Counted from the stretch's first letter, positions 3,865 to 19,360 are shown. The stretch is 20,000 nt of DNA from an uncultured virus (IMG/VR IMGVR_UViG_3300014043_000005) (IMGVR_UViG_3300014043_000005), one strand, 5' to 3'. The notes: a model not told the origin generated them from the sequence alone. Program-made: numbers and translations.

Positions 3865-3919
3865 TGCTCACCCTGAAACTCACACGGGTACTCCCTGCTT
3901 GCTTTCAGGTGAACCAGGT
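3865..3919. repeat. Left arm of 55-bp perfect inverted repeat
   Basis: Exact reverse complement of 5924-5978. Confidence 0.95.
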
Positions 3920-4116
3920 CAGAATGAGTTTTTGAACAGTATGATTATATAATGATAATCCATGATAATATGATTATATTGCAAACATTAACCTTATGCT
4001 ATTGAAAAATGTTAATCTTTTTTGTTGCAAGCATTGAATACAATCATCATCAGATGCGGTTCCATTATTTAATTATTAGCGCATGTCTTGAACGCATTTG
4101 CAAACATTCAATAACC

Positions 4117-4131: not shown

Positions 4132-4139
4132 GGACTTAT

Positions 4140-5559
4140 CAAATTATTGTGCTGGAATACCCCTATTTTTAAATATGAGGGATGACAGCGCAATATCTAA
4201 CTAAAAAGTTAAAAAATAACATTTAAAAGTTGCATACTAGTGGGAGAGTGTGATATCATAGTAAGTATGACAACAGCAGGTAATAATATGCAGACTGTCA
4301 GGTATAATTACCGATTGTACCCGACTAAAACTCAAGAGACTGTGTTGAACCGCCTCTTTGGGTGCTGCCGTGTTGTCTATAATGATACTATTGATTTCTT
4401 TAATAATAATTTTAACCCTAATAATCAGAGTAAACTACCAACCGCAGCGAATGCTAGTAAACAAATACTAACAAGTGCTAAGAAAACCGTTAAGAGAGCC
4501 TTTCTGAAGGAAGTCTCCAGTGTCGCACTTCAGCAGGAGTTCCGTAATGCTTGGTTAGCTTGTTTGCATGGTGTAAGTCATACTAGTAATCAGAAACCAG
4601 CAAAGCGTAAGACTAAGAAGCATAATCCAGTGAACTCAGCTAACTTCACTAGTAATGGTTTCAGTATTAACCAGCATGGTGTGTATATATCGAAAATCGG
4701 GGTTATTAAAACCAAGTGGTCACGCCCCATGCCTAGTGAACCAACTAGTTGCACTATTAGTCATGCTAGGAATGGTCGTTGGTATGCTAGTTTTGTTGTT
4801 AAGCGTCCTAAAACACCATTCGCGCAGTGTGATAATAATGCTGGCATTGACATGGGACTCACTGATATGGCTACGATTGTTAATACGAAAGGTGATAGGT
4901 GGAAGATAGCAAACCCGCGTAATTACGCTAAAATACAGGATAAGATTGGTCGTTTACAGCGACACCTTAGTAAGCAGACTAAAGGTTCTAAGAGGTATGA
5001 GCGAACCCGCCATCAGATAGCATTACTCTATTCTAAGGCTCATGATGCCCTTGCTGATTACCAATGGAAGAATGTTCTCAATATCATACGCGAGACCCAA
5101 GCTATTGGTGTTGAGACACTTGACATTAAAAGTATGACTGCTAAGCATGGTAAGAGTGTACGTGATGCTTCTATGCGTTCATTCCTTAATAAACTGGGTT
5201 CTAAGGCTGATGAGCATTGTAGGGTTATTATCCGGCTTAATCAGTGGTTGGTTACGACTAAAGTGTGTGCTCTTTGTAAGCATAAGTTGAAGGTTGGGTT
5301 GCCTGAGTATGCTAGGCATTGGGTGTGCCCGAAGTGTGGGGCTCACCTGGATCGTGATTATAATGCTGCTCTTAATATCCTCGACGCGGCAGGGCTTGCC
5401 GGGTCGTTAAATGCGCGTGGAGGGAGCGTAATATCATTCTTAGCTTCTGCTGAGAATGGCTGCTCTCGTAGAACCGCGTACCACCCTAATTTCTAGTGAT
5501 TAGAGTTCGCTAGTATACGGTTAGGAATCACCCGACTTTAGTCGTGGTGAGGAAGTCAA
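4140..5559 (+). mobile_element. IS200/IS605-family tnpB-only element (IS1341-like)
   Basis: tnpB ORF; left-end hairpin region ~4150-4191; right-end hairpin 5528-5550 ending GGAAGTCAA (5559); composition differs from the flanks; left boundary after TTAT (4136-4139) is inferred. Confidence 0.85.
4267..5496 (+). CDS. tnpB: RNA-guided endonuclease TnpB
   Basis: N-terminal RYNYRLYPT...LFGCCRVVYN; RuvC-I GIDMGL; RuvC-II GVETLD; zinc finger CALC/CPKC; RuvC-III DRDYNAALNI. ATG 4267 lies 7 nt after the promoter TTGCAT(4230)...TGATATCAT(4251-4259), i.e. leaderless. Confidence 0.95.
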   Translation: MTTAGNNMQTVRYNYRLYPTKTQETVLNRLFGCCRVVYNDTIDFFNNNFNPNNQSKLPTAANASKQILTSAKKTVKRAFLKEVSSVALQQEFRNAWLACLHGVSHTSNQKPAKRKTKKHNPVNSANFTSNGFSINQHGVYISKIGVIKTKWSRPMPSEPTSCTISHARNGRWYASFVVKRPKTPFAQCDNNAGIDMGLTDMATIVNTKGDRWKIANPRNYAKIQDKIGRLQRHLSKQTKGSKRYERTRHQIALLYSKAHDALADYQWKNVLNIIRETQAIGVETLDIKSMTAKHGKSVRDASMRSFLNKLGSKADEHCRVIIRLNQWLVTTKVCALCKHKLKVGLPEYARHWVCPKCGAHLDRDYNAALNILDAAGLAGSLNARGGSVISFLASAENGCSRRTAYHPNF

Positions 5560-5579
5560 AATTCATATGGATTAATTTG
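5380..5579 (+). ncRNA. Predicted TnpB omegaRNA (scaffold to 5559, guide from 5560)
   Basis: Known architecture: the omegaRNA overlaps the tnpB 3' end and the right end; 5' boundary is approximate. Confidence 0.6.
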
Positions 5580-5923
5580 AATAACATGTGGCATTATTCA
5601 AATTTCACAGTGGTTCACCTGAAAGCGATACTGCAACAAGCGGATAATTCTGATTGCATTGTTAACATAATCAGTATGATTTTTTCATTGAATTCATGAA
5701 TACGGGAAACCGTGAAAATCGATGCCGTTCACAGAGCGCAGAATAATAGGCTCTGTGGACGGCTGTTTTAACCGGAATCACGGAAAACCCTGTTTTCGAT
5801 GCGTGTCTCATGAAACATATAGAATCGCCGTCAGAATCGAAATAAGAGTTTTTTATGATGTGAAAAATCACCATGAATACTCTGAACAACGCATCATCCT
5901 GAACTCTTGAAAATGGCTTTTTA

Positions 5924-5978
5924 ACCTGGTTCACCTGAAAGCAAGCAGGGAGTACCCGTGTGAGTTTCAGGGTGAGCA
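5924..5978. repeat. Right arm of 55-bp perfect inverted repeat
   Basis: ACCTGGTTCACCTGAAAGCAAGCAGGGAGTACCCGTGTGAGTTTCAGGGTGAGCA = reverse complement of 3865-3919. Confidence 0.95.
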
Positions 5979-6497: not shown

Positions 6498-6542
6498 GTC
6501 ATGGTTTGAATGCTTATCGGTTCTCATGCTATCATTGGCTGC

Positions 6543-7421
6543 ATGATATCAAATGATGAAATGCAGGAAATTCGGGATTACATTGACAGTTTGATGCATG
6601 AGCATGGCGGAAACGGGTATTATGATAAGATGTATGCCGTCAGTGAGATTCCCGCGTTTGAAACCATTGTTAATTACAGTAATGCGAACATTGGACTCAT
6701 TCATGAGTATGTGAATGATTATGTGGAAACCGGTAGGGTGAGGTCATTCCTTGCAGGTTCGGACATTTATAATTCAGTGTCATTTTTCAATGAGTTGAAT
6801 ATTTTCATTTATCATCATCATGATTATGATAATCTGGTTCCTAAGAATATTCGTGATGCAATGCGCACATGGACAATGTTATGTGTTCCACATGGTATTA
6901 TGAATGCTAATGGGTTCAAATTGACATCATCTTTTTCATCTATGAGTCAATACATGCATTATCTCATGCGTAAAAATGATATGAATAACAGTGAAATCAG
7001 TCATGCTCTTGCTGACCCGTCATATTATCCGCGTGTCATTCGTGATGAAACCGATGCATTCATTGGGGATGTCATTAACGGGAACCGTCGTAATACTGAA
7101 ACCTTATTGAAATTCATAATGAAATATAATGAACCTGTATCATCATATGATTTGGATACATTGGTTTCAAATGAAACCATTATGAGCATATCATATGACG
7201 ATATGCTTCCCGGTATTCTCATGACTGATAATTGGAATGAACGCCTTGCATTCATGAAAGCATTCAATATTATGAAAACATATGCTGATGTCATAAGTGA
7301 TTTCAATGGGAACATGACATTGAATGATGCGATGCCAGCATTAATAGAAAATATGAATGGAATGCCTTTTGAATACACGTTGGAAATAATGAAAACCGGT
7401 ATGCCTGATTGCGTATCATAA
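6543..7421 (+). CDS. Hypothetical protein (~292 aa), leaderless
   Basis: Long ORF; TTGAAT(6506)...TGCTATCAT(6527-6535) lies 7 nt before ATG 6543. Confidence 0.75.
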   Translation: MISNDEMQEIRDYIDSLMHEHGGNGYYDKMYAVSEIPAFETIVNYSNANIGLIHEYVNDYVETGRVRSFLAGSDIYNSVSFFNELNIFIYHHHDYDNLVPKNIRDAMRTWTMLCVPHGIMNANGFKLTSSFSSMSQYMHYLMRKNDMNNSEISHALADPSYYPRVIRDETDAFIGDVINGNRRNTETLLKFIMKYNEPVSSYDLDTLVSNETIMSISYDDMLPGILMTDNWNERLAFMKAFNIMKTYADVISDFNGNMTLNDAMPALIENMNGMPFEYTLEIMKTGMPDCVS

Positions 7422-7429
7422 TTGATGGC

Positions 7430-7940
7430 ATGCATTCAAATGTTGGCATTATGAATATGGAATTGAAAACAGCTGGTGAACGCGGGATGCCAATGGAATT
7501 GAACGCAATATCGGTGGATGCGCATGATTATGATTTCAAGTATTTGCATGGATTCGTTGATGACTATGAGCATATCTCATACTGGACGCATTGAACCGAG
7601 GAGATTATTGATGAGTCCCATCATCGCGGAATATCATCAGTATGTCATGAATCATGATTAGCGTGAGAATATTGATGACGAATCCGAATTATTTGAAAAC
7701 ATGGAATGGCATTCTGGATGAAAGCAAAATGATTAAATTGGATTATTATAATCATGATTCGATGCGTGCGTTATTGAATCCTATGAACAATCATTGAAAA
7801 CAATGGAATCATAATGCATCAATTCATTGCAGGTACCATTGAATGCTTTATTATTGCGTGATTGCAAACAGGTGATTAATGATTACTCAATGGAATATTG
7901 CACGGGAACAATCGAAAATTATTACTCATTCATGATATTT
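7430..7940 (+). pseudogene. Probable decayed gene
   Basis: Coding-like composition but broken into short frames by TGA/TAA stops and frameshifts. Confidence 0.35.
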
Positions 7941-8121
7941 ATATGCTATCATTGTAGACAAATGAAATCATTCTGAAAGGAACATGATATGACTGTTAAT
8001 ATTATTCTCATGTTCCATGCGTCCCATCATTGAACATGAAACTATTCCATGTGAACAATGATGATAGCATGGAAACAACATGATAACAAGCATTTATTAT
8101 ATTTTTTGATGGGAGTTTAAC

Positions 8122-9264
8122 ATGATTGATTTAACTGATTTGGATACTGGTTTGCGTTCGATGGAAACCAGACTTGATGTGAACGAATTGATTGCACGTA
8201 ATGATGCTATTCGTTCAATGATGGATTCATCGGATTATTGGGTACGGCGTGGTGATGATGCCAGCATGATAGCAAGTGAACTCACACGGAACCAGAAATT
8301 ATTGGATGATTACACTGGTTTGAAAAACGACATCGCTGGTTTGCATGATTACACTGAACTCATGAATGATGATGAACTCACGGATGATGACCGCAATTGT
8401 CTCATTGCGGAACATGATAGGCTCATGAACGCATTGAATGCAATGCGATTGGACATCGCAGTGAGCGGCATTGATTATGCGGACAGGGACGCGATTATCA
8501 CGATTCATGCTGGTTCAGGCGGAACGGAATCGGAAAACTGGTGCTGGATGCTATCACGAATGTATATGCGTTATGTTGAAACCAATGATTACAATTCGGA
8601 CATTGATGATGTCGCTTATGGTGATGGCGGCGCAGGTTATGATTTATTGCGTTCAATCAGCATCCGGATAAGCAAACAGAAGAATCACCATTATGATGGC
8701 ATGTATTCATTTCCATTTGCGTTATTTTCACGGGAAGCGGGACGGCAGAAACTCATCAGAATCTCACCTTTTGACAAGAATCATCGCAGGCAAACCAGCG
8801 TGTGCTCAGTTGATGTGATTCCTGTTTTAGATGAACACATTACAAGCATTAAAGACATTATAATCGATCCGAAAGATTTGAAAACCGATGTGTTCTGCGC
8901 ATCCGGGCCGGGTGGACAATGCGTGAACACTACGTATTCAGCTGTCCGTCTGACGCATATTCCAACTGGTATTGTAGTCAGTCAACAGGATGAACGTGAT
9001 CAGCATCGTAATCGTGAGAAAGCAATGCTTGTATTGAAAACGCGGTTATTATTGTTGAAACAACAGGAACAGAAGGAGAAGCTGAAATCACTGGGCAATG
9101 ATGTTGGTACTACAATGGGTGGAACAATCCGGAATTATGTCCTGTATCCTTATGAACAGGTTAAGGATACACGGACTGGATGCGTTGCAACCAATGTGGA
9201 CATCATGCTGGAAACAGGTGAAGGATTAGATGATTTCCTGCGCACGGAACTATTCGTTTTATAA
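8122..9264 (+). CDS. prfB: Peptide chain release factor 2 homologue
   Basis: AGSGGTES..W..ML.RMY, SPF specificity motif (RISPFDKNHRRQTS), GGQ (SGPGGQCVNTTYSAVRLTHIPTG), C-terminal IRNYVLYPYEQVKDTRTG. Confidence 0.92.
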   Translation: MIDLTDLDTGLRSMETRLDVNELIARNDAIRSMMDSSDYWVRRGDDASMIASELTRNQKLLDDYTGLKNDIAGLHDYTELMNDDELTDDDRNCLIAEHDRLMNALNAMRLDIAVSGIDYADRDAIITIHAGSGGTESENWCWMLSRMYMRYVETNDYNSDIDDVAYGDGGAGYDLLRSISIRISKQKNHHYDGMYSFPFALFSREAGRQKLIRISPFDKNHRRQTSVCSVDVIPVLDEHITSIKDIIIDPKDLKTDVFCASGPGGQCVNTTYSAVRLTHIPTGIVVSQQDERDQHRNREKAMLVLKTRLLLLKQQEQKEKLKSLGNDVGTTMGGTIRNYVLYPYEQVKDTRTGCVATNVDIMLETGEGLDDFLRTELFVL

Positions 9265-10383: not shown

Positions 10384-11481
10384 ATGGCTGGGAAACGGAC
10401 GCCTGCTGGAACATGGTATGAGGGCAAGGACGGGAAACCTCATCCCTGCATGACAGAGAACGGCAAACCATGTTCCAAGCATGCTAAGAACCAGCATATT
10501 GGTAATTCCTATGAGGAAGCCGAACAAGCCATTGAAGCGAAATATGACGCGGATATGAATTCAATGGGGACAGGGCTCACATCCGAGCAAACAGCAATGC
10601 TAACCAGCATTCTGAATGATGCTAAGCATGATTCCAATGACCGCATTGAAAGCATTCTCGGTGAACCGGTTGAACATATTGGTTCTATTCCAGTGTATGA
10701 GGATAAGCATGCTTCGCCGGATGGCGTTGCAGCGTTATATTACCCGCATGTCAAGGATGGTACTGTCCATGTGGATTCATTGCGTTCAATCGCGGACGAT
10801 GCAAGTATGAATGATGATGAATCACATGGTGTGAGGCAGTATACTGGTTATGGCGCGTATGATATGAATCGTGTTCTGCGAGGTGATGAAATGACGGATC
10901 ATTCACCGGATGAACAAGGTGGAGTCGTGCATGATTTGAACTCATTGACTGATCTGCTGGATAGGACTGAATCACCGGATGACATGATAGTGTATCGACA
11001 GGAACGCTTCATGGTTGGTGATTCCCCTGAATATAAAGCAATAGTGAATGCATGCAATGAGAACAATGATGACATGTATGATAAACATGATTTCACCAGC
11101 ACGACAATTAATGGCGGGAACCGTCGTGGAATGGAGGAATCGACTGGTTGTGTGGATTATGTGATAATGATTCCAAAAGGCACGCACGGAATGCTGGTGG
11201 ATTCACAATCATATCATGCTGATGAACAGGAATTCCTTGTCCAACAAGGACAATCATATAAGGTTAAGGCGATTGTGAACAGGGGTTCTGGTTATAGGTT
11301 GAATCAGCGGAAACCTATTGTCATAATGGAAGCAGTGCCAGCAGAGTCACATCCAGTAAGAATCAATGAGGATGATTATGGTTTTGATGGTTCCATGATG
11401 ATGACGGAGGATGATGTTGACGCCATGATGAGTGAAGACATAATAAGTGATAGTTTTTTCGAAGATCTATTGGATTATTAA
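10384..11481 (+). CDS. ADP-ribosyltransferase ART1 (VIP2-like) with N-terminal CCH leader and acidic tail
   Basis: YDMNRVLR, DMIVYR, FTSTT, IPKGTHG, EQEFL (R-S-ExE); start ATG 10384 after GGAAGG. Confidence 0.85.
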   Translation: MAGKRTPAGTWYEGKDGKPHPCMTENGKPCSKHAKNQHIGNSYEEAEQAIEAKYDADMNSMGTGLTSEQTAMLTSILNDAKHDSNDRIESILGEPVEHIGSIPVYEDKHASPDGVAALYYPHVKDGTVHVDSLRSIADDASMNDDESHGVRQYTGYGAYDMNRVLRGDEMTDHSPDEQGGVVHDLNSLTDLLDRTESPDDMIVYRQERFMVGDSPEYKAIVNACNENNDDMYDKHDFTSTTINGGNRRGMEESTGCVDYVIMIPKGTHGMLVDSQSYHADEQEFLVQQGQSYKVKAIVNRGSGYRLNQRKPIVIMEAVPAESHPVRINEDDYGFDGSMMMTEDDVDAMMSEDIISDSFFEDLLDY

Positions 11482-11639
11482 CTGATAATAATTTTTATAA
11501 TATAATGCTCGCATGATGAATATCGGCTTCTTTGCTTGCCTTGACATCCGGCATTTTCAATCGGAATTCATCAGCTGTGTAATCATAATATTTTTTCATG
11601 ATTACAATAATATAATACGATGATTATGCTGCTAACATT

Positions 11640-12096
11640 TTTAATTGGATGACGGAACCATATTCGATTCCATCATCCAATTATGTTACTATACAATCAC
11701 ATATTTCATCATTCCGTGATATGCATTTCAAATGCCGCGCAACGCGAATCATCCATTTCAATCAATGTTCTCATCATGCCATCATCGAGTCCATAACGTC
11801 CACCGCATGGAATGAAATATTGCATGCCGGGCAAACCAATCATGTCAGTTTTACCATGATAAATGAAGTTCCTTATTTCATAACCATCATTGATGAGCAT
11901 GCCCCTTACGGTGATTACATATCATAATCATCCAATGTGAATATTTTATCATATTTTCTTATTGAACGCATCACGATTCACGGAACTATGATAATCATCA
12001 CCATGTGCAATGATTACTGGCTCCTTATACCCGCTCTGCATCGTCAGCCATTTCACTGTATCCAATGTCATTATAAACATTCTCAATGGTATTCAT
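11640..12096 (-). pseudogene. Frameshifted remnant gene
   Basis: TATACT -10 followed by ATG (MNTIENVYNDIG...); coding-like fragments in shifting frames, including the 63-aa ORF 11709-11900. Confidence 0.4.
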
Positions 12097-12296
12097 GATT
12101 ACAGTATACTACATGATATGAATCCATACAAGAAAACAGTCATAATGATGATAATATTGAATGCATGAATAAGAATGATATGCGTGAACCGAACCTGACG
12201 AGTTTCATCAGTGATTTCGGAAATTCTGATGTTTTCACGATAGATTCCATGTGAACATGAATGCAAATATTACCATAATCACGGAGGTGAATCATC

Positions 12297-13328
12297 ATGC
12301 GAAAGCCAGCTGGAACATGGTATGAAGGCAAGGACGGGAAACCTCATCCCTGCATAACCGAGAATGGCAAACCATGTTCCAAGCATGCTGGCAGTGAACA
12401 CATAGGAACCACTTATGAGGAAGCCGAACAGTATATCCAAAGGAAATATTCCGATACCGTTTTCATTGGAATGTCATCATTGAATCCAATGTTTTCAGAT
12501 AGAACGAATAATAATGATGAATCATTCAAAATGACTGACATGATGATTCGGCGCGAAAAACTGAACAATGATGGGAACATGCCGATACGCATGAAAATAC
12601 CAGTTGATTATCCAACCGAACGCATCTCACAGATAATGTTTCCATCCACGCCGGATGCACGGAGCATGGAAAATGAACTCATGGATTCAGCGAATGCATC
12701 ATGGAAATCAATGACGGAACATGAGAAGGATTCCATTCGCGCTTATTGTTCCGATGCGTATGAGGCGATGAATGAGTATCAGCGTGGGGATGATGACATT
12801 CGTGCGGACATTGACAATGACGAATTCGTGAAAGCGGATTTGAAAAACTATGGTTTCAGGACTGTTAAAGGCGCGATAAGCACAATGAGCCGCGCTTTAA
12901 GGAAAACAAGCACAGGCAGGGACATGATAGTGTATCGTTCCAGGTTCACGGAAGCATCCAGTGGCGGACGTGACATGGAAGAGAGAACATTCTATGATGC
13001 TGGCATGAATGCATTGGAAACAGGCGAACCGGCAATCATCCGGAAAGCCGGGTTCTCATCAACGACAACGGATTTGAAATCATTGTTCTCAGGATTGGGG
13101 GGAGCACCATCGGACACGCCTCATAATGTGAAATACGTGATTAAAGTGCCTGCCGAGACTCATGGAATGTATGTCGGTGGGCTGTCACCGAATCATGAGG
13201 AGAAGGAATTCCTCATGAATAAAGGCATGAAATACCGGATCGCGGGAATTTTCGAACGCGGAACATATGATGATTATGAGAATGACTGGGATGCCGCGCC
13301 GATAATCGCATTGGAAATCATGAAATGA
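12297..13328 (+). CDS. ADP-ribosyltransferase ART2 with CCH leader
   Basis: YEAMNEYQR, DMIVYR, FSSTT, VPAETHG, EKEFL, PIIALE; GGAGG RBS. Confidence 0.85.
   Translation: MRKPAGTWYEGKDGKPHPCITENGKPCSKHAGSEHIGTTYEEAEQYIQRKYSDTVFIGMSSLNPMFSDRTNNNDESFKMTDMMIRREKLNNDGNMPIRMKIPVDYPTERISQIMFPSTPDARSMENELMDSANASWKSMTEHEKDSIRAYCSDAYEAMNEYQRGDDDIRADIDNDEFVKADLKNYGFRTVKGAISTMSRALRKTSTGRDMIVYRSRFTEASSGGRDMEERTFYDAGMNALETGEPAIIRKAGFSSTTTDLKSLFSGLGGAPSDTPHNVKYVIKVPAETHGMYVGGLSPNHEEKEFLMNKGMKYRIAGIFERGTYDDYENDWDAAPIIALEIMK
12305..12389 (+). repeat. Leader-encoding direct repeat (80/85 identical to 10401-10485)
   Basis: Direct comparison; differences are mostly synonymous. Confidence 0.9.
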
Positions 13329-13448
13329 GCACATGAGAACATGATGCGTTCACATGCTATTATTATTCAATATAAGTATTGAAAACACGGATAGATTGAC
13401 ATCAGGAACATAATTTGTTAACATGAATGCATGGAAGGAAAACATATC

Positions 13449-14912
13449 ATGGCGACTAAAACATATGGTTATGACAGGAACGGGAATGTAAGTGAATGCA
13501 CCGCGCAGGAACGGAATCGCGGTAAGGGACGCTGTAATCATTACGGTCATTTCAATACTGATAACAAACAGGAACTCATTGAGAAGACAGAAGCGATTCA
13601 AGCCGAACTGAACAATGATGTGAACGCCGGAATGATTGCGCACAATGTATCCAAAACCGGTTCGGCGGAGCGGGAATTCGAACGAGTGCATGCAGTTGAA
13701 ATCAGGAATGCGGAACAGGAATATGAGAAAGCGAAAACCGCTTATGATGCCGTCCGCATGAAACCTGATGCGATTGAAACCGAATACAGGACGCTGGTGG
13801 ATGCGAATAATAGGAAATACGCGGAATTGGATGCACGCATTGACAACATGAGTTATCCATCCGGTGATAAGGAACTGGATGAACGGTTTGAACGAGCATT
13901 CAATGATTCGCTCACTGATAAATCCGATTTTGATGTTGATGATCTTAAATCAGGAGGAAGAATCATCCTGCATAAAGGCGATATCAATGAATTCATTCCT
14001 GAAATCAGTGAAATCCCGGCAGATGAACGTGTGTATGCTGATGATGAGGGATTGGATTATTATGATGCATCGGATGATGAACCGGAAGGATGGTATAGGA
14101 ACGGTGAATATTACGCTGATTATGATGATCCGTCAATCATTGATGTGAATGCAATTCAGGATGCTGTTGTCAATGAGGATTCATTGGATATAACCGATCA
14201 TGCGATTTCATCCACTAAATACACTATGCATCAGGAACTTAAACAGGAACATGCGGAAGCGGATAAGGAAGCGTTGAATACCGCAAAATCACATCATCCT
14301 ATGACCGAGAATGAGGAAAAACAGGCGCTTGACGCCAGAGTTAGATTCATGAACGCATCCATGAGGTTGAAAAAGCTGAATGATGCGAAAAACATCGCGG
14401 GAATCGCAGGTTTTGATGTCATCAGGAAAATCAATGAATCCAATGATGGTGTGAAAACATATGAGAACAGACTGAAAACGGAATTATCATATGGCGGTCA
14501 TGTTGATTATGACTATGACTATGACTATGACGCTGGCGGAACCAGCCGGAAAATGCCGGGCGATTATTACACGTCCAGTATCACGAATGCGGATCCTGAT
14601 AATTGGTATACAGTGGATTCAGTTGAATACAATGATAGTGGGCTGAAAAAGAAAGCGTTGATTGACAGGGAAACCGATCCATATGTCCTGTCGAAAGCGG
14701 AGAAACAAAATGGTTTTCAGGAAGGATGGATGCGTGTCATTGATGATGATAAACATTCACCTGAAAGCCGTTACAGGATGATGATAACGCAAGCATATGA
14801 CAGCAATGGTTTCAATGATTACCAATTGAAGCAAATCCGTAAGTCAAAACTATATAAAACAGGAGGAATGCCTGATTTTGATAGGATAATCAGTATTATC
14901 CGCAGGAAATAG
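13449..14912 (+). CDS. CCH-leader protein without ART domain (coiled-coil and acidic, ~487 aa)
   Basis: N-terminus YGYDRNGNVSEC..........CNHYGH; heptad-like helices; Asp/Tyr-rich core; GGAAGG RBS. Confidence 0.8.
   Translation: MATKTYGYDRNGNVSECTAQERNRGKGRCNHYGHFNTDNKQELIEKTEAIQAELNNDVNAGMIAHNVSKTGSAEREFERVHAVEIRNAEQEYEKAKTAYDAVRMKPDAIETEYRTLVDANNRKYAELDARIDNMSYPSGDKELDERFERAFNDSLTDKSDFDVDDLKSGGRIILHKGDINEFIPEISEIPADERVYADDEGLDYYDASDDEPEGWYRNGEYYADYDDPSIIDVNAIQDAVVNEDSLDITDHAISSTKYTMHQELKQEHAEADKEALNTAKSHHPMTENEEKQALDARVRFMNASMRLKKLNDAKNIAGIAGFDVIRKINESNDGVKTYENRLKTELSYGGHVDYDYDYDYDAGGTSRKMPGDYYTSSITNADPDNWYTVDSVEYNDSGLKKKALIDRETDPYVLSKAEKQNGFQEGWMRVIDDDKHSPESRYRMMITQAYDSNGFNDYQLKQIRKSKLYKTGGMPDFDRIISIIRRK
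14505..14531 (+). repeat. Hexanucleotide tandem repeat (GAYTAT)4.5 encoding DYDYDYDYD
   Basis: gattat gactat gactat gactat gac. Confidence 0.8.
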
Positions 14913-14929
14913 AATAATTCAATTAATTT

Positions 14930-14981
14930 AATGCGTGCATTGTAAATATGAATTGCATAATGCACGCATTTGTATTATTTT
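14930..14981 (+). terminator. Probable terminator hairpin
   Basis: 12-bp stem AATGCGTGCATT / AATGCACGCATT with a T-rich tail. Confidence 0.6.
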
Positions 14982-15031
14982 CCCGATAGATTACCATAAG
15001 AGAAGAATGACATTATAGAAGGAATAGCATC

Positions 15032-16516
15032 ATGGTAGGCATGGTTGATAATGCTCCGAAACAATTGAAAAATAAGAAACCGGATGAATCATGGCCGCAT
15101 CATCAGGATAAGCATGGTAACTGGGTTCCCTGCGCTTCCAATCCATGTAAAATGCATGGCGGAACGGAAATCATGGCTAAGAATCCGGAGGAGGCATTTG
15201 AGAAAGCGAATTCAGTATCATGGGGTTCATTCGGAATGAGCATGAATCAGAAGAACGATAACATTGATGAAACTGATAAAAATTCAGAAACTGATAATTC
15301 AAATGCTAATAATCACAAAGTGAAAGAGCATGCGTTGGATGGTGTTTTGAAAGCTGGAATGACATCATTGAATGCAAATGATAACAATGATGACATGAAT
15401 GACAAGCAGAAAGCGGCATGGGATAAACTGCAATCCGCAATGGATGATAATTCGCATGATGAGCATAAACCGGTGAAGAAACATGTGAAATTGACTAAAA
15501 AGAAAACTGTAAAACCAGTTGAAACCAGCGATGACAATATGAGCAAAACCGGGACAATCACCGGATCACATGAATCGAAACAGACTGAATCATCAACTGG
15601 AACCACTTCCAGTTCAAATGCGTCCAATGCTGGCATTATAACATCAAACAGGCATCTTATGAAACAACGCGCCGTGATTGAACAACGGTTGAAAGATGCT
15701 GGCATTGATATCATTGAGCGTCCTGCGCCATCACAGGAAGTAATTGATGAAATGCGTAATAATGGCGAGTATATTCGTGATAATCCGCTTGTTTTCAATG
15801 TGGACAGTAAAGTGAACACGCAGGAACTTGCGCACGCCATTTTCAAGGGAGCGGATTTCGGTGATGAACATTATAAGGAACTTATTCAGCGTTCTAATGA
15901 GGCGTGGGATTCAATGACATCAGATGAACAGGACGCAATTTATCAGTATACCGGTTCCGCATATAGTTCGATGAATAAGGCATTATATAAGAAAAACTAT
16001 AAAGCGGAGAAATCATTAAAAAAGATCGCTGACATGAGTTCGGGACTGGCGAAAACAGAGAATGTATGCCAACATGATACTGTGTTGTATCGTCGCCGTT
16101 TCCTGAAAGAACAGGACGGCGAGTATACACGGAGCAGGGAGGAGACCGCCGCATTTCAAGCCCTTGCGCGTGTTACCGGTAAGAAAACAGCGAAACCTAC
16201 TTTCACTCGTGCCAATTATATGAGTACAGCTAATCGTGGTTTCAATAATAGCTATCATGATCAAGTTAGATACATTATAAGCATTCCGAAAGGCACGCAT
16301 GGTATTTCAGTGGAGGAACATAGCATTCATAGCAGTGAGGATGAGTTCATCATTGACAAAGGCTATGATTATGAGGTTGTCGGCGTGTTCCAAACAAGCG
16401 AAATACGTAAACACAGTAACGGCATTACCAATTGGGAAACAGGATGCAGCCCGATAATCGCCTTGCGTGTAATTCCGAAAAAGAATAAATCCGTCAAACC
16501 GGGAATGACAGCATGA
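15032..16516 (+). CDS. ADP-ribosyltransferase ART3 with CCH leader and low-complexity linker
   Basis: YSSMNKAL, DTVLYR, YMSTA, IPKGTHG, EDEFI, PIIALR. Confidence 0.85.
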   Translation: MVGMVDNAPKQLKNKKPDESWPHHQDKHGNWVPCASNPCKMHGGTEIMAKNPEEAFEKANSVSWGSFGMSMNQKNDNIDETDKNSETDNSNANNHKVKEHALDGVLKAGMTSLNANDNNDDMNDKQKAAWDKLQSAMDDNSHDEHKPVKKHVKLTKKKTVKPVETSDDNMSKTGTITGSHESKQTESSTGTTSSSNASNAGIITSNRHLMKQRAVIEQRLKDAGIDIIERPAPSQEVIDEMRNNGEYIRDNPLVFNVDSKVNTQELAHAIFKGADFGDEHYKELIQRSNEAWDSMTSDEQDAIYQYTGSAYSSMNKALYKKNYKAEKSLKKIADMSSGLAKTENVCQHDTVLYRRRFLKEQDGEYTRSREETAAFQALARVTGKKTAKPTFTRANYMSTANRGFNNSYHDQVRYIISIPKGTHGISVEEHSIHSSEDEFIIDKGYDYEVVGVFQTSEIRKHSNGITNWETGCSPIIALRVIPKKNKSVKPGMTA

Positions 16517-17569
16517 ACGCATTGAAAACAACCAGCGAATGGCCGCATCATCAGGATAAGCATGGCAACTGTGTTCCCTGCGCTTCCAATCCATGTAAAA
16601 TGCATGGCGGAACGGAAATCATGGCTAAGAATCCGGAGGAAGCGTTTGAGAAGGCAAACAGCGCATTCACTGAATTTATTAAAAAGCTGAATAATGCTGG
16701 CATTAAACTGGCGGATCGCACGCAGAATGACGAGGACATTATTAAGGAACTGCGTGATAACAATGAATACATTGATGATAATCCACGGTGTTTCCATGTG
16801 AATGGTGATGATGTGAGCGCTTATGATATCGCGCATGCATTATTCCCCGATGCTGATTATGGTGATAATGATGACATCATGGAAGCATTGAATGAACGTT
16901 CGGAAGCGATATGGCATGCGATGTCATACGATGAAATGATTGCATTGAATGATTATTGCGATCGTGGTTATCAGCAAGGTTAACGGCACTCTCATTAAAG
17001 GACGGAATGTGCTTGAAGATGATGATGGACAGATATTGACATCGGAACAGGTTCATGATGAGATTAATAACATTTCATCCGCATTATCAAGAACCGGGGA
17101 TGTGATAACTCATGAAACCATTGTGTACAGAAGACAGGGAAATGCATGGAAATATGGCATAGGCGATGAAACAATGGCAATCATGAATTCCCTCATATCC
17201 AATGATGGCGTTCCGGTTGTCCGCCGTCCGAATTATGTCAGCACATCAATGCAGGCATCATTGGATACGGCTGATTTCAACTCATCCGCTCATCATGAAA
17301 CACAATATGTGATTAGCGTTCCAGCTGGCGTCCGTGCTTTATCAGTCGCGAATCATAGTGAATTCAGTGAGAATGAACTTATCATTGATAAAGGCTATAA
17401 ATTCGAGGTTATAGGCGTTTTTCAAACATCTCAATTGGGACATCAGGATGCAGTCATTGGAATCAATGAGGATGGTAAGAAACAGCATGATGGAATATTG
17501 AATTGGAAGCGTGATGGCAATCCAATAATCGCGTTGCGCGTCATCCCTTATTTCAATGTGGATAAATGA
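16513..17569 (+). pseudogene. ADP-ribosyltransferase ART4, split by a +1 frameshift near 16978
   Basis: Removing one G in CAA-G-GTT joins ORFs 16513-16983 and 16949-17569 as GYQQVNGTL (cf. GYKQVNADL in ART5); ETIVYR, YVSTS, ENELI present. Confidence 0.8.
16539..16652 (+). repeat. Leader-encoding direct repeat (110/114 identical to 15091-15204)
   Basis: Direct comparison. Confidence 0.9.
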
Positions 17570-17633
17570 ACGCATATAATATGGAAACATGATGCATTAT
17601 CAACAATAATAACATGATGTTGGAAGGATTTGA

Positions 17634-18776
17634 ATGATGGCGGATTATGGTTATCCGGGAACATGGTATATTGCAGCTGATGGAAGAAAACGCAGATGCA
17701 GGACAATCGGTGGTTCACCTTGTCATCAACATGCCAATGGCGGTCATATCACTGATGATGCTGGCAATGTCATCATTGCTTCCAATGAAACTGAATTGGA
17801 AGCGAAACTGCATGCCGGTTTGAAAACCGGCATGACTGGCGATGCTCATATGAAAACAAATGATGACATGATGGAAACGCAAGCATCTGATAAGGTTAAT
17901 AAACCGGCTGTGAAACCGCATGAACCGGCGATTCCAATGCCGGGAATGATGATGAACAGCAGTTTGAAGAAAAACATCATGATGAAACAAGCACGAGAAC
18001 GGAAACGTGAGCAAATCAAATTGGAACGCGCCAAACCAGAAACAAGCATTGATGACAGCATTAAAATACGTAATGGACTTGCGGATGAACTTAAAAAACA
18101 TGGTTCATGGATTTATGATTCCAATGTGTTCAAGGGATACACTGATAAAACAACCAGCCAGCTTGCTCATGAACTATATCCTGATGCGGTTGAGGGTGAT
18201 GTGGCGGAAAACCCATTGACACGCGACGCAAGGAACGTTTATCATAAACTGGATGGCAGAACACGATTCGCCGTCAAGGATTACACGGAAGTCGGTTATA
18301 AGCAAGTGAATGCGGATTTACGTGATGGGAACAAAATGGATACACGGAGCCATGAACTCATGGTAGGAATGGACAGGGCGATTCATGCGAATGCGCCATT
18401 GGAACATGACACTGTATTATATAGGACAATTGAATTGAACGATATGACAACCACTAACCGTGGAATTGAGGAGAAACGCGCGTATGACGCCATTGCATCC
18501 GGTGATGGCATTGTGGATAATCCGGCGTATATCAGCACATCATTCAAGGGGAGCCTGTTCGCGGCGGGTGAACATGAAAACACTGAAATCATCATTCTTG
18601 CGAAAGCGGGAACTCGTGGAATCGCAATAACTGACAGTCAATATGATGAACATGAGTATGTGATTGATCGCGGAACTCGAATGCGCGTGAAAGCGATTTA
18701 TGAAACAGGTGATTACAGGGATGCGGATAATTGGCGTTTGAAACATCCGGTGATAATCATGGAAACCATCCCATAA
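17634..18776 (+). CDS. ADP-ribosyltransferase ART5 with CCH leader
   Basis: YKQVNADLR, DTVLYR, YISTS, AGTRG, EHEYV, PVIIME; leader GTWYIAADGRKRRC.......CHQH. Confidence 0.85.
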   Translation: MMADYGYPGTWYIAADGRKRRCRTIGGSPCHQHANGGHITDDAGNVIIASNETELEAKLHAGLKTGMTGDAHMKTNDDMMETQASDKVNKPAVKPHEPAIPMPGMMMNSSLKKNIMMKQARERKREQIKLERAKPETSIDDSIKIRNGLADELKKHGSWIYDSNVFKGYTDKTTSQLAHELYPDAVEGDVAENPLTRDARNVYHKLDGRTRFAVKDYTEVGYKQVNADLRDGNKMDTRSHELMVGMDRAIHANAPLEHDTVLYRTIELNDMTTTNRGIEEKRAYDAIASGDGIVDNPAYISTSFKGSLFAAGEHENTEIIILAKAGTRGIAITDSQYDEHEYVIDRGTRMRVKAIYETGDYRDADNWRLKHPVIIMETIP

Positions 18777-18928
18777 ATGGCATCATATGCTATCATTGTG
18801 AGCAGGAAAAACGAAATTGAAAGGTGAATCTGATGCCGTTATTGAATGAGGAACTAATGAGCGCATGATAACAGCATTGAAATCATATCGCAATCATCAT
18901 AACATGATATGATAATACGACACGCTAT

Positions 18929-19256
18929 CAATCATGTGAGAGGGCGGCGGTGAATCACGCACACGCATAACCGACTCTCTATGTAGTGCTTTCAATCGAG
19001 AATTATATGATATTTTTAAATCAAATTTTGCATTATCCAAAAGAATATGATATTATAGTAAGCATGAGTTCATACAGGCGTTATAATTATCGGCTGCTTT
19101 GAATATTCTTGACTCCGTAGAGGTGATGTAAGACGAAGGCTGGCGCAAGCCAGTCGCAACGTTAACGCCAATGAAGCGGGAACCCACCGAACCGCAATCC
19201 TCCATTAAGGCGACCGGCGTAGGAATCCCACGCCTTCAGGCGTGGGAGGAAGTCAA
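18929..19256 (+). mobile_element. Miniature, internally deleted tnpB element retaining promoter and omegaRNA region
   Basis: Promoter TTGCAT-17-TATTAT; ATG 19064 MSSYRRYNYRL fused out of frame to AALNILD (19093-19113); right-end hairpin ending GGAAGTCAA at 19256; left boundary inferred. Confidence 0.8.
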
Positions 19257-19360
19257 TATGATTGACATTGTTTCATTAATATGATAGTATAATTATGTAA
19301 ATAATATTTTATTCATGTTAACATTGTTATCATGAACCGTTCTGGAAAGGATGATTTGAA

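Follow-up and report, generated by a model that had tools for sequence, protein, structure and literature searches.

The stretch of DNA analysed here (20,000 nucleotides of the uncultured virus entry IMGVR_UViG_3300014043_000005 in IMG/VR, hereafter the window) carries six genes arranged head to tail on the + strand at 10384–18776 (8.4 kb). Five of them encode predicted ADP-ribosyltransferases (ARTs), and the sixth, open reading frame 3 (ORF3), encodes a paralogue without an ART domain. All six proteins share an N-terminal module (N-module), which recurs in front of many other cargo domains on related elements. We consider it slightly better than an even chance (about 55%) that the array is a tandem set of diversified host-directed effectors on a very large mobile element, with the N-module serving as a shared delivery or handling tag. 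An earlier sequence-only reading had described an array of five genes; its five ART domains were recovered here, whereas the sixth, non-ART paralogue, the shared N-module and the broken state of ART4 had all been overlooked.

The identity of the five enzymes was evaluated using profile, sequence and structure searches. The Pfam family PF03496 (ADPrib_exo_Tox) was found in five of the seven pieces of the region (ART1, ART2, ART3, the C-terminal piece of ART4, and ART5), with scores of 45.4–76.1 bits against a cut-off of 23.4 bits; no Pfam family was found in the N-terminal piece of ART4 or in ORF 13431–14912. Matches in PHROGs were weaker and fell in the 'ADP-ribosyltransferase exoenzyme toxin' and 'Alt-like RNA polymerase ADP-ribosyltransferase' families, and the Alt-like PHROG 802 weakly matched every ART (Table 1) except the C-terminal piece of ART4, for which it gave no match. 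The full R-S-ExE catalytic sets that had been claimed for five co-oriented genes were all found in the translations, and Y213, R214, S255, E302, and E304 (ART2 numbering) were invariant across 8 aligned relatives. In addition, Certhrax was the closest solved structure by sequence (E 2.4e-8 with phmmer for ART2, and 7.6e-6 for ART3), with its Q-x-E aligned opposite E-K-E.

The fold was predicted with AlphaFold2 for ART2, the sole ART modelled, from an 8-row alignment (mean predicted local distance difference test score, pLDDT, of 72.3; predicted template modelling score, pTM, of 0.68). The top Foldseek matches of this model were Certhrax, CDTa, C3bot, C2-I, VIP2, and iota (E 1e-12 to 1e-10), and the template modelling (TM) scores by target were 0.58–0.70 for single-domain chains of ~180–211 residues. 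The PIIAL/PVIIM stretch, which the sequence-only reading had taken as a shared C-terminal strand, forms the final β-strand of the model (residues 336–342), and residues 52–78, past the helix of the N-module, are disordered. The search against ADPrib_exo_Tox, VIP2, and Alt that had been proposed as a check thus returned PF03496 above its cut-off, Certhrax by sequence, and a VIP2/C3/Certhrax-like ART2 model. Sequence and predicted fold together confirmed, far beyond chance, that the five genes encode VIP2/C3/Alt-clade R-S-ExE ARTs. The description of diversified paralogues on a mobile element also held, and their strong divergence was borne out by identities to ART1 of 17–35% across full lengths.

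According to passages in PMC9503650 and PMC5512222, E-x-E enzymes of the R-S-E clade mostly modify arginine. With the R / S-T-x / E-x-E site intact in sequence, the ARTs would most likely move ADP-ribose from NAD+ onto arginines of host proteins, an enzymatic activity and a specificity that we infer by analogy. With its five naturally occurring ART variants, the array could be used to map the evolution of target choice.

Alignment of the six N-termini showed that all six proteins open with a module of ~45 residues of the pattern W/F..G..C..PC..H followed by a helix. Its elements come in the order aromatic residue, invariant Gly, Cys, 4–11 residues, Pro-Cys-x-x-His, and acidic helix; the Gly and both Cys residues are invariant, Pro and His are near-invariant, and the module is probably metal-binding. 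A model of the module (59-row alignment, moderate pLDDT of 76.7) predicted three short strands and a helix. The module matched no Pfam family, even at E 5, and neither the module nor ORF3 had a usable match in the ESM Atlas. Conservation of the module and of the remaining protein differ sharply among the paralogues. Between ART3 and the ART4 orthologue, 41 of 41 module residues agree, against 34% identity in the ART part, and the ART3 and ART4 module DNA is 95% identical across 120 nucleotides (nt). Likewise, the modules of ART1 and ART2 are ~85% identical, against 32% overall.

The module of ORF3 is followed by a cargo for which neither a Pfam nor a PHROG family was found, and a sequence search of the PDB with ORF3 returned nothing meaningful. 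A degenerate ART was considered and rejected, with an hhalign probability of 0.2 against the ART profile. The ORF3 orthologue P0011 clusters with P0042, a protein of a distant element, by homology of the cargo.

The range of proteins bearing the module was evaluated with a profile built from the six N-termini and searched against 1.836 billion cluster-representative proteins. This profile matched 65 proteins at E≤1e-3 and 11 at E≤1e-10, with lengths of 37–640 residues (aa); nearly all matches sit at the first residues of the protein, and three sequence flavours (types) were distinguished among the module-bearing proteins. Pfam searches of 64 of the matches (P0001 excluded) assigned PF03496 to 13, PolyA_pol (the head domain of poly(A) polymerases and CCA-type enzymes) to 2, and Zeta_toxin and NT5C to 1 each. 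The others comprised one TnpB chimera (P0008), one marginal RecG_N match, two sub-threshold matches, and 43 proteins with no family, and a relative at locus L003 carries a borderline HNH_4 cargo (22.2 bits against a cut-off of 22). After 33 further proteins had been added, a hidden Markov model (HMM) of the module matched 99 of the 101, a count that is partly circular as the HMM was built from the same proteins, and the module begins within the first 30 residues in 96 of these 99. BLAST clustering of the 86 cargos of at least 120 aa gave 30 clusters, the biggest being the ART cluster (37 members, inflated by near-identical ART3 orthologues). These comparisons showed that the module is common to at least 30 predicted cargo families on related elements.

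Moreover, a G-[MLIF] dipeptide follows the module His in 59 of 69 proteins, mostly 23–28 residues on (counted in a window of 18–42 residues). Shuffling these tails 500 times gave a mean of 19.9 and never more than 30. Among the proteins that depart from the pattern are the nucleotidyltransferase and zeta-toxin fusions.

One member of the array, ART4, is not a single open frame in the window and changes frame within the overlap at 16949–16983. An intact orthologue of 332 aa (P0009) exists in public data; the N-terminal piece matches its residues 1–136 save one 19-residue gap, and the C-terminal piece is identical to its residues 136–332 at 195 of 197 positions. A contig from an independent run (X3) spans the break without a length difference, and therefore the broken ART4 is not a one-off assembly slip; in another run (X2), single-base length changes lie close by. 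In L001, a near-identical locus (97–99% identity), 220 bp stand in place of the C-terminal part of ART4 (16839–17606), and the junctions of this replacement recur as loose ends in runs X3 and X5. In a further variant, the chimera P0008, the N-terminal part of ART4 continues as a TnpB C-terminal domain. L001 keeps the five remaining genes intact, and so does locus L002 as far as it reaches. ART4 is undergoing repeated loss.

The element that carries the array is mobile, as shown by segments that vary among close copies, depleted palindromes, matching CRISPR-like (clustered regularly interspaced short palindromic repeats) spacers, and the lack of any locus returned from GTDB. The TnpB unit (4133–5611) and the release-factor segment (7631–9245) are present or absent among copies that are 97–99% identical. 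Short palindromes are depleted, with GGCC at 0.21 and GATC at 0.27 of expectation and GGCC, GATC, GACC/GGTC, AGCT, and ACGT together spanning 0.21–0.49. In contigs of two other runs, the sequence of 11439–11473 is flanked on both sides by a 27–28-nt repeat with a palindromic core, in the manner of a CRISPR spacer, and similar junctions lie near 11921 and near 12230, all of them within or next to the ART1-ART2 spacer; one run concerned is an RNA library. A search of 185,579 GTDB species genomes with the type-A motif only gave 11 pattern matches, 1 tblastn relative, and 0 loci.

The stretch, or most of it, was found in runs of 13 studies (the source study possibly among them), most of them carrying the label bovine gut metagenome; this habitat evidence leaves out runs with small word shares. 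The hosts of this uncultivated element would be bacteria of the cattle gut that use Shine-Dalgarno sites, and they are probably Gram-positive. The contigs that encode relatives of ART3 and other module-bearing proteins reach 553,788 bp, with others of 402,434 and 375,007 bp. The length of 375,007 bp is given for three different module-bearing proteins, which suggests that all three reside on one and the same contig.

The label 'phage-like' given by the sequence-only reading was not upheld, as virion, terminase, and portal families are missing from the window, the L001 flank and the distant relatives, and the family is absent from INPHARED and IMG/VR by the searches made. Neither the window, nor the next 5.7 kb downstream in L001, nor ~54 kb of three distant loci yielded a virion gene (terminase, portal, capsid), leaving ~75 kb of the element and its relatives without one. 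Scans of IMG/VR returned no relative of ART2, the type-A module, the type-B module family, ORF 6510–7421, or the release factor RF2. INPHARED searches with the region, ART2, and ART3 at the DNA and protein levels were empty, with no tblastn match in 50,697 phage records, and the PLSDB plasmids held no match to ART3. Two candidate relatives were rejected: L008, a weak Cys-repeat match from IMG/VR, is without the module, and L007, from a metagenome scan, is a false positive from a cellular cytochrome region of 58% GC.

The genes that were identified beside the family are instead of other kinds. The 5.7-kb L001 flank encodes a Bax1-I/YccA-like protein, an HD protein, and a Usp fragment. The distant loci encode a TcpC-family protein (above threshold), a class C sortase (E 1.5e-51), an LPXTG pilin, RadA, SSB, a TopA fragment, an oligoribonuclease-like exonuclease, and a PD-(D/E)XK nuclease; in L003 the TcpC-family gene precedes a module-bearing gene by 1.3 kb, and the pilin and sortase genes lie directly downstream of one in L004. 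The gene set of the distant loci leans towards a Gram-positive conjugative or plasmid-like element and is still compatible with a huge phage; rumen megaphages reach 717 kb, according to a passage in PMC11662467. We favour a huge plasmid-like or conjugative element at just under even odds, regard a huge phage as a serious possibility of lower standing, and consider some other kind of element unlikely.

Phage- and plasmid-borne ARTs are a known route to host takeover or disarming. As the module is near-constant while the cargo diverges, and as it occurs on at least 30 unrelated cargo families, it was read as a shared handle. The combination of a strictly N-terminal conserved module, a disordered linker, a conserved dipeptide, and interchangeable enzymes is most simply explained by a routing or handling tag. 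Each protein consists of the N-module, a disordered linker that usually opens with G-[M/L], and a cargo domain, and the N-module would route all of them to one common place. The proteins may be loaded into a particle, pass through a transfer channel so as to reach a newly entered cell early, or share a docking site in that cell; early delivery into the newly entered cell seems the most plausible purpose. The ARTs may then reprogramme or disarm the host, and each paralogue would have its own target.

Several observations weigh against this explanation. The module has no fold relative, as Foldseek matched nothing at E≤1e-3 and VIA-align reached a Z of 2.1 at most, and known signals of type IV secretion systems (T4SS) are usually C-terminal. 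A partner machine was not seen in the window, which has no capsid, portal, terminase, or T4SS genes. The CCA-type nucleotidyltransferase and 5'-nucleotidase cargos are not obvious effectors, their fusions mostly lack G-[ML], and such housekeeping-like cargos also fit a general regulatory or docking module. Contigs from an RNA library cover ART2, ORF3, and part of ART3, yet carry-over of DNA could account for them. Finally, ART4 is disrupted in several independent ways, and therefore at least one paralogue is dispensable.

In a more specific and quite tentative form of the delivery explanation, which we hold at well under even odds, the Cys-Cys-His module would be a hitherto unrecognised loading or translocation signal that defines the delivered effectorome of huge (0.2 to >0.55 Mb) ruminant-gut elements, with a leader that may be cut at G-[M/L]. 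ARTs, zeta-type kinases, nucleases, nucleotidyltransferases, and ~25 cargo families of no known kind would then be sent ahead with the DNA, and the five ARTs of the array would represent a lineage-specific expansion within that system. Should the leader prove to be a delivery tag, it would provide a sequence rule for listing the early-delivered proteins of this group of giant elements, together with a portable delivery tag.

The main competing explanation is that the N-module is a small zinc knuckle, which docks all cargos on one host structure or nucleic acid (e.g. RNA polymerase, ribosome, tRNA, or the incoming DNA) after ordinary expression. The invariant Cys-Cys pair, the near-invariant His and the compact strand-helix unit are consistent with a zinc knuckle, although no similarity to a known zinc finger or nucleic-acid-binding fold was found. 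The cargos are mostly directed at nucleotides or nucleic acids (ART, CCA-type nucleotidyltransferase, 5'-nucleotidase, HNH, and zeta-type kinase), and docking suits the fusions to housekeeping-like enzymes better than injection does. However, a binding domain could sit anywhere in a protein, whereas the strict N-terminal position (96 of 99), the disordered linker, and the G-[ML] dipeptide look leader-like, and we regard docking as unlikely. If the leader is nevertheless a docking domain, it marks one host structure on which many enzymes converge.

We also considered whether the proteins are weapons, akin to polymorphic toxins, which the host cell exports to attack competing bacteria; the N-module would then mediate trafficking through a secretion system that the element encodes, such as one built from the T4SS or pilus genes of its relatives. 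A constant N-terminus joined to variable C-terminal domains of toxin type (ART, zeta toxin, HNH) agrees with this proposal, as do the TcpC-family gene near a module-bearing gene in L003 and the pilin and class C sortase of L004. However, none of the six genes is followed by an immunity gene, and gaps of 119–120 bp or overlaps are too tight to hold one. Both this lack and the close packing of the genes argue against a classical toxin-immunity arrangement. Moreover, the window lacks ARH and macro families, searches for a signal peptide-like or known trafficking domain came up empty, and the CCA-adding enzyme and 5'-nucleotidase cargos are non-toxins, which makes this proposal doubtful and less probable still than docking. 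That the array is an anti-phage or abortive-infection defence island, with ARTs as toxic effectors freed on infection, is very improbable: ART-based defence exists (DarTG, in a passage of PMC9503650) and mobile elements carry defence islands, but 0 of 13 window proteins matched PADLOC models, no antitoxin, sensor, or chaperone partner was found, the R-S-ExE VIP2/Alt clade is unlike DarT-type ARTs, and six genes with one leader correspond to no known defence layout.

The layout of the array is given in Table 1. Intergenic gaps of 119–120 bp, or overlaps, follow ART2, ORF3, and ART3, and Shine-Dalgarno-like GGAGG/GGAAGG sequences lie directly upstream of the ART starts. The start of ART1 was placed at the Met at 10384, as in its orthologue P0002, in which the longer 10357 start is unused. 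ART1 alone has a strongly acidic, Met-rich tail of ~45 residues past the last ART strand (11353–11481), and this tail is kept in P0002. A scan of the window for tRNAs and Rfam families found none.

Table 1. Genes, gene pieces, and spacer of the array, with domain organisation and supporting matches (window positions)
Feature	Position	Strand	Organisation	Matches and evidence
ART1	10384..11481	+	N-module ~10399-10545, linker, ADPrib_exo_Tox (DMIVYR/FTSTT/EQE), acidic C-terminal tail	Pfam PF03496 E 2.9e-18; N-module HMM match; PHROG 802 E 1.1e-3 (weak)
ART1-ART2 spacer	11482..12296	.	variable; other sequence in its place in near-identical locus L001	blastn, window against L001
ART2	12297..13328	+	N-module ~12300-12446, disordered linker, helical region, ART core (DMIVYR/FSSTT/EKE)	Pfam E 1e-20; PHROG 802 E 2.6e-6 (weak); Certhrax by phmmer; AlphaFold2 and Foldseek
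ORF3 (sixth paralogue)	13449..14912	+	N-module ~13449-13595, ~430-aa cargo of no known family, without R-S-ExE set	N-module HMM E 8e-11; alignment
ART3	15032..16516	+	N-module ~15083-15214, long low-complexity linker, ART core (DTVLYR/YMSTA/EDE)	Pfam E 2.9e-21; PHROG 802 E 1.3e-7 (weak)
ART4 N-terminal piece	16513..16983	+	N-module ~16534-16665 and beginning of ART region; stop after frame change	
ART4 C-terminal piece	16949..17569	+	other frame than N-terminal piece; ART core (ETIVYR/YVSTS/ENE)	Pfam E 6.6e-14
ART5	17634..18776	+	N-module ~17646-17798, linker, ART core (DTVLYR/YISTS/EHE)	Pfam E 7.5e-12; PHROG 802 E 1.8e-7 (weak)

Other features of the window were also recorded. The TnpB ORF (4240–5496), with OrfB_IS605, Cas12f1-like TNB, and HTH domains of the IS605 family, lies on the segment 4133–5611 that is missing from L001. 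An inverted repeat at 3865–3940 and 5903–5978 (76 nt, 89% complementary) flanks the insertion outside both ends, and therefore the TnpB insertion sits between the arms of an older palindrome. The segment 7631–9245, present in L002 and missing from L001, carries a divergent RF2-like gene (8122–9264) with SPF and GGQ motifs; its protein matched NCBIfam prfB at E 8.6e-87, under the cut-off, and is ~35% identical to anything in the phage collection. No sign of stop-codon recoding was found in the window. An alternative genetic code was also considered; all three stops terminate plausible genes, and readthrough of TAG, TGA, or TAA gave no convincing gain, so the standard code was kept.

A non-coding element of ~170 nt occurs in the window at ~19090–19258 and 2134–2203, and in L004 at ~4870–5020 and, on the other strand, ~18700–18860. 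It is 85–90% conserved between this element (42% GC) and the distant one (33% GC), which share no other DNA similarity, and no Rfam family matched it. Its 3' part reads GGAATC, a hairpin, and then GAGGAAGTCAA, and resembles the sequence just past the TnpB stop; it is therefore probably an IS605 right-end or guide-RNA-scaffold remnant. A 346-aa protein encoded at 1127–2167, whose last codons overlap the ~170-nt element, has a Cys-rich N-terminal half, 6.9% Cys overall, and repeated C-x2-C pairs, and no Pfam, PHROG, or NCBIfam family was found for it. Across the whole window, CAT/ATG is the commonest trinucleotide, Met accounts for 4.3% of residues, with a maximum of 7.9% for an individual protein, and the shares of His, Asn, and Asp are also high. 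In L004 (691–6679; also in L005, 16207–19984), a tandem family of four or five paralogues of no known family (413, 377, 268, 103, and 417 aa; 26–60% identity) lies upstream of the module-bearing gene, the pilin, and the class C sortase.

Comparison with known systems began with the ART domains, which by sequence and model are members of the R-S-E ADPrib_exo_Tox clade: they share the HMM match, the catalytic set, and the predicted fold with the Alt/VIP2 clade (T4 Alt, ModA, ModB, C3, iota, C2-I, CDTa, and Certhrax). Passages in PMC9503650 and PMC5512222 describe T4 Alt as packaged and injected, and the array resembles the T4 enzymes in its carriage on a mobile element and in having several ART paralogues per genome; the first of these sources also places ~44% of phage ARTs in contexts suggesting head packaging. 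However, similarity to Alt is weak (PHROG 802, E 1e-3 to 1e-7), and no head or baseplate genes adjoin the array: neither the window nor the L001 flank matched a structural PHROG or Pfam family. Furthermore, T4 Alt has a short capsid-targeting peptide where the proteins described here have a new N-terminal module.

The sequence-only reading had considered an array of this size unusual, a claim weakened by the ART counts in a passage of Iyer et al. (2022; PMC9503650), in which ARTs occur in >40% of jumbo phages, with at least 10 in Bacillus phage G and 12 in Bodo saltans virus. As genomes with many ARTs are in print, the ART count alone is not new and is ordinary for giant elements. Phage G and Bodo saltans virus likewise hold many ART paralogues in a very large element, and the relatives found here lie on contigs of up to 554 kb. 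In the present array, five ARTs and a sixth paralogue stand head to tail within 8.4 kb with one leader; section 3.3.1 of PMC9503650, supplements aside, describes neither feature for phage G.

MuF-ART fusions and polyvalent proteins, in passages of Iyer et al. (2017, 2022), share with the present proposal the idea of effectors delivered with invading DNA, in which ART is the commonest protein-modifying cargo. Unlike the MuF fusions, the array has no MuF (Phage_Mu_F) domain; Pfam finds PF03496 only, and the PHROG 595 matches are limited to profile positions ~324–500 of 513, which is the ART part. Unlike polyvalent proteins, each protein has a single cargo, with one Pfam domain per protein, and polyvalent-protein ARTs belong to the H-Y-D clade rather than the R-S-E clade (in a passage of PMC5512222).

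Polymorphic toxins are likewise mosaic in their conservation, with an N-terminal part that stays constant and C-terminal enzymatic domains that are exchanged, but the array differs from them in having no immunity genes, no known trafficking domain, and some non-toxin cargos. Binary toxins (iota, C2, CDT, VIP1/VIP2) share the fold of the catalytic domain; in contrast to them, the 19 window ORFs scanned include neither a binding or translocation component nor a duplicated adaptor ART domain, and the setting of the genes suggests that the target is bacterial, not eukaryotic. A defining feature of each system was tested for and not found, and therefore the array was not filed as an Alt-type packaged ART, MuF fusion, polyvalent protein, binary toxin, or polymorphic toxin. 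Searches of open-access text, supplements aside, gave no description of this N-module or of a tandem ART array with a common leader. The novelty of the array lies in its organisation, namely an undescribed shared leader, a broad range of cargos, and carriage on very large uncatalogued elements.

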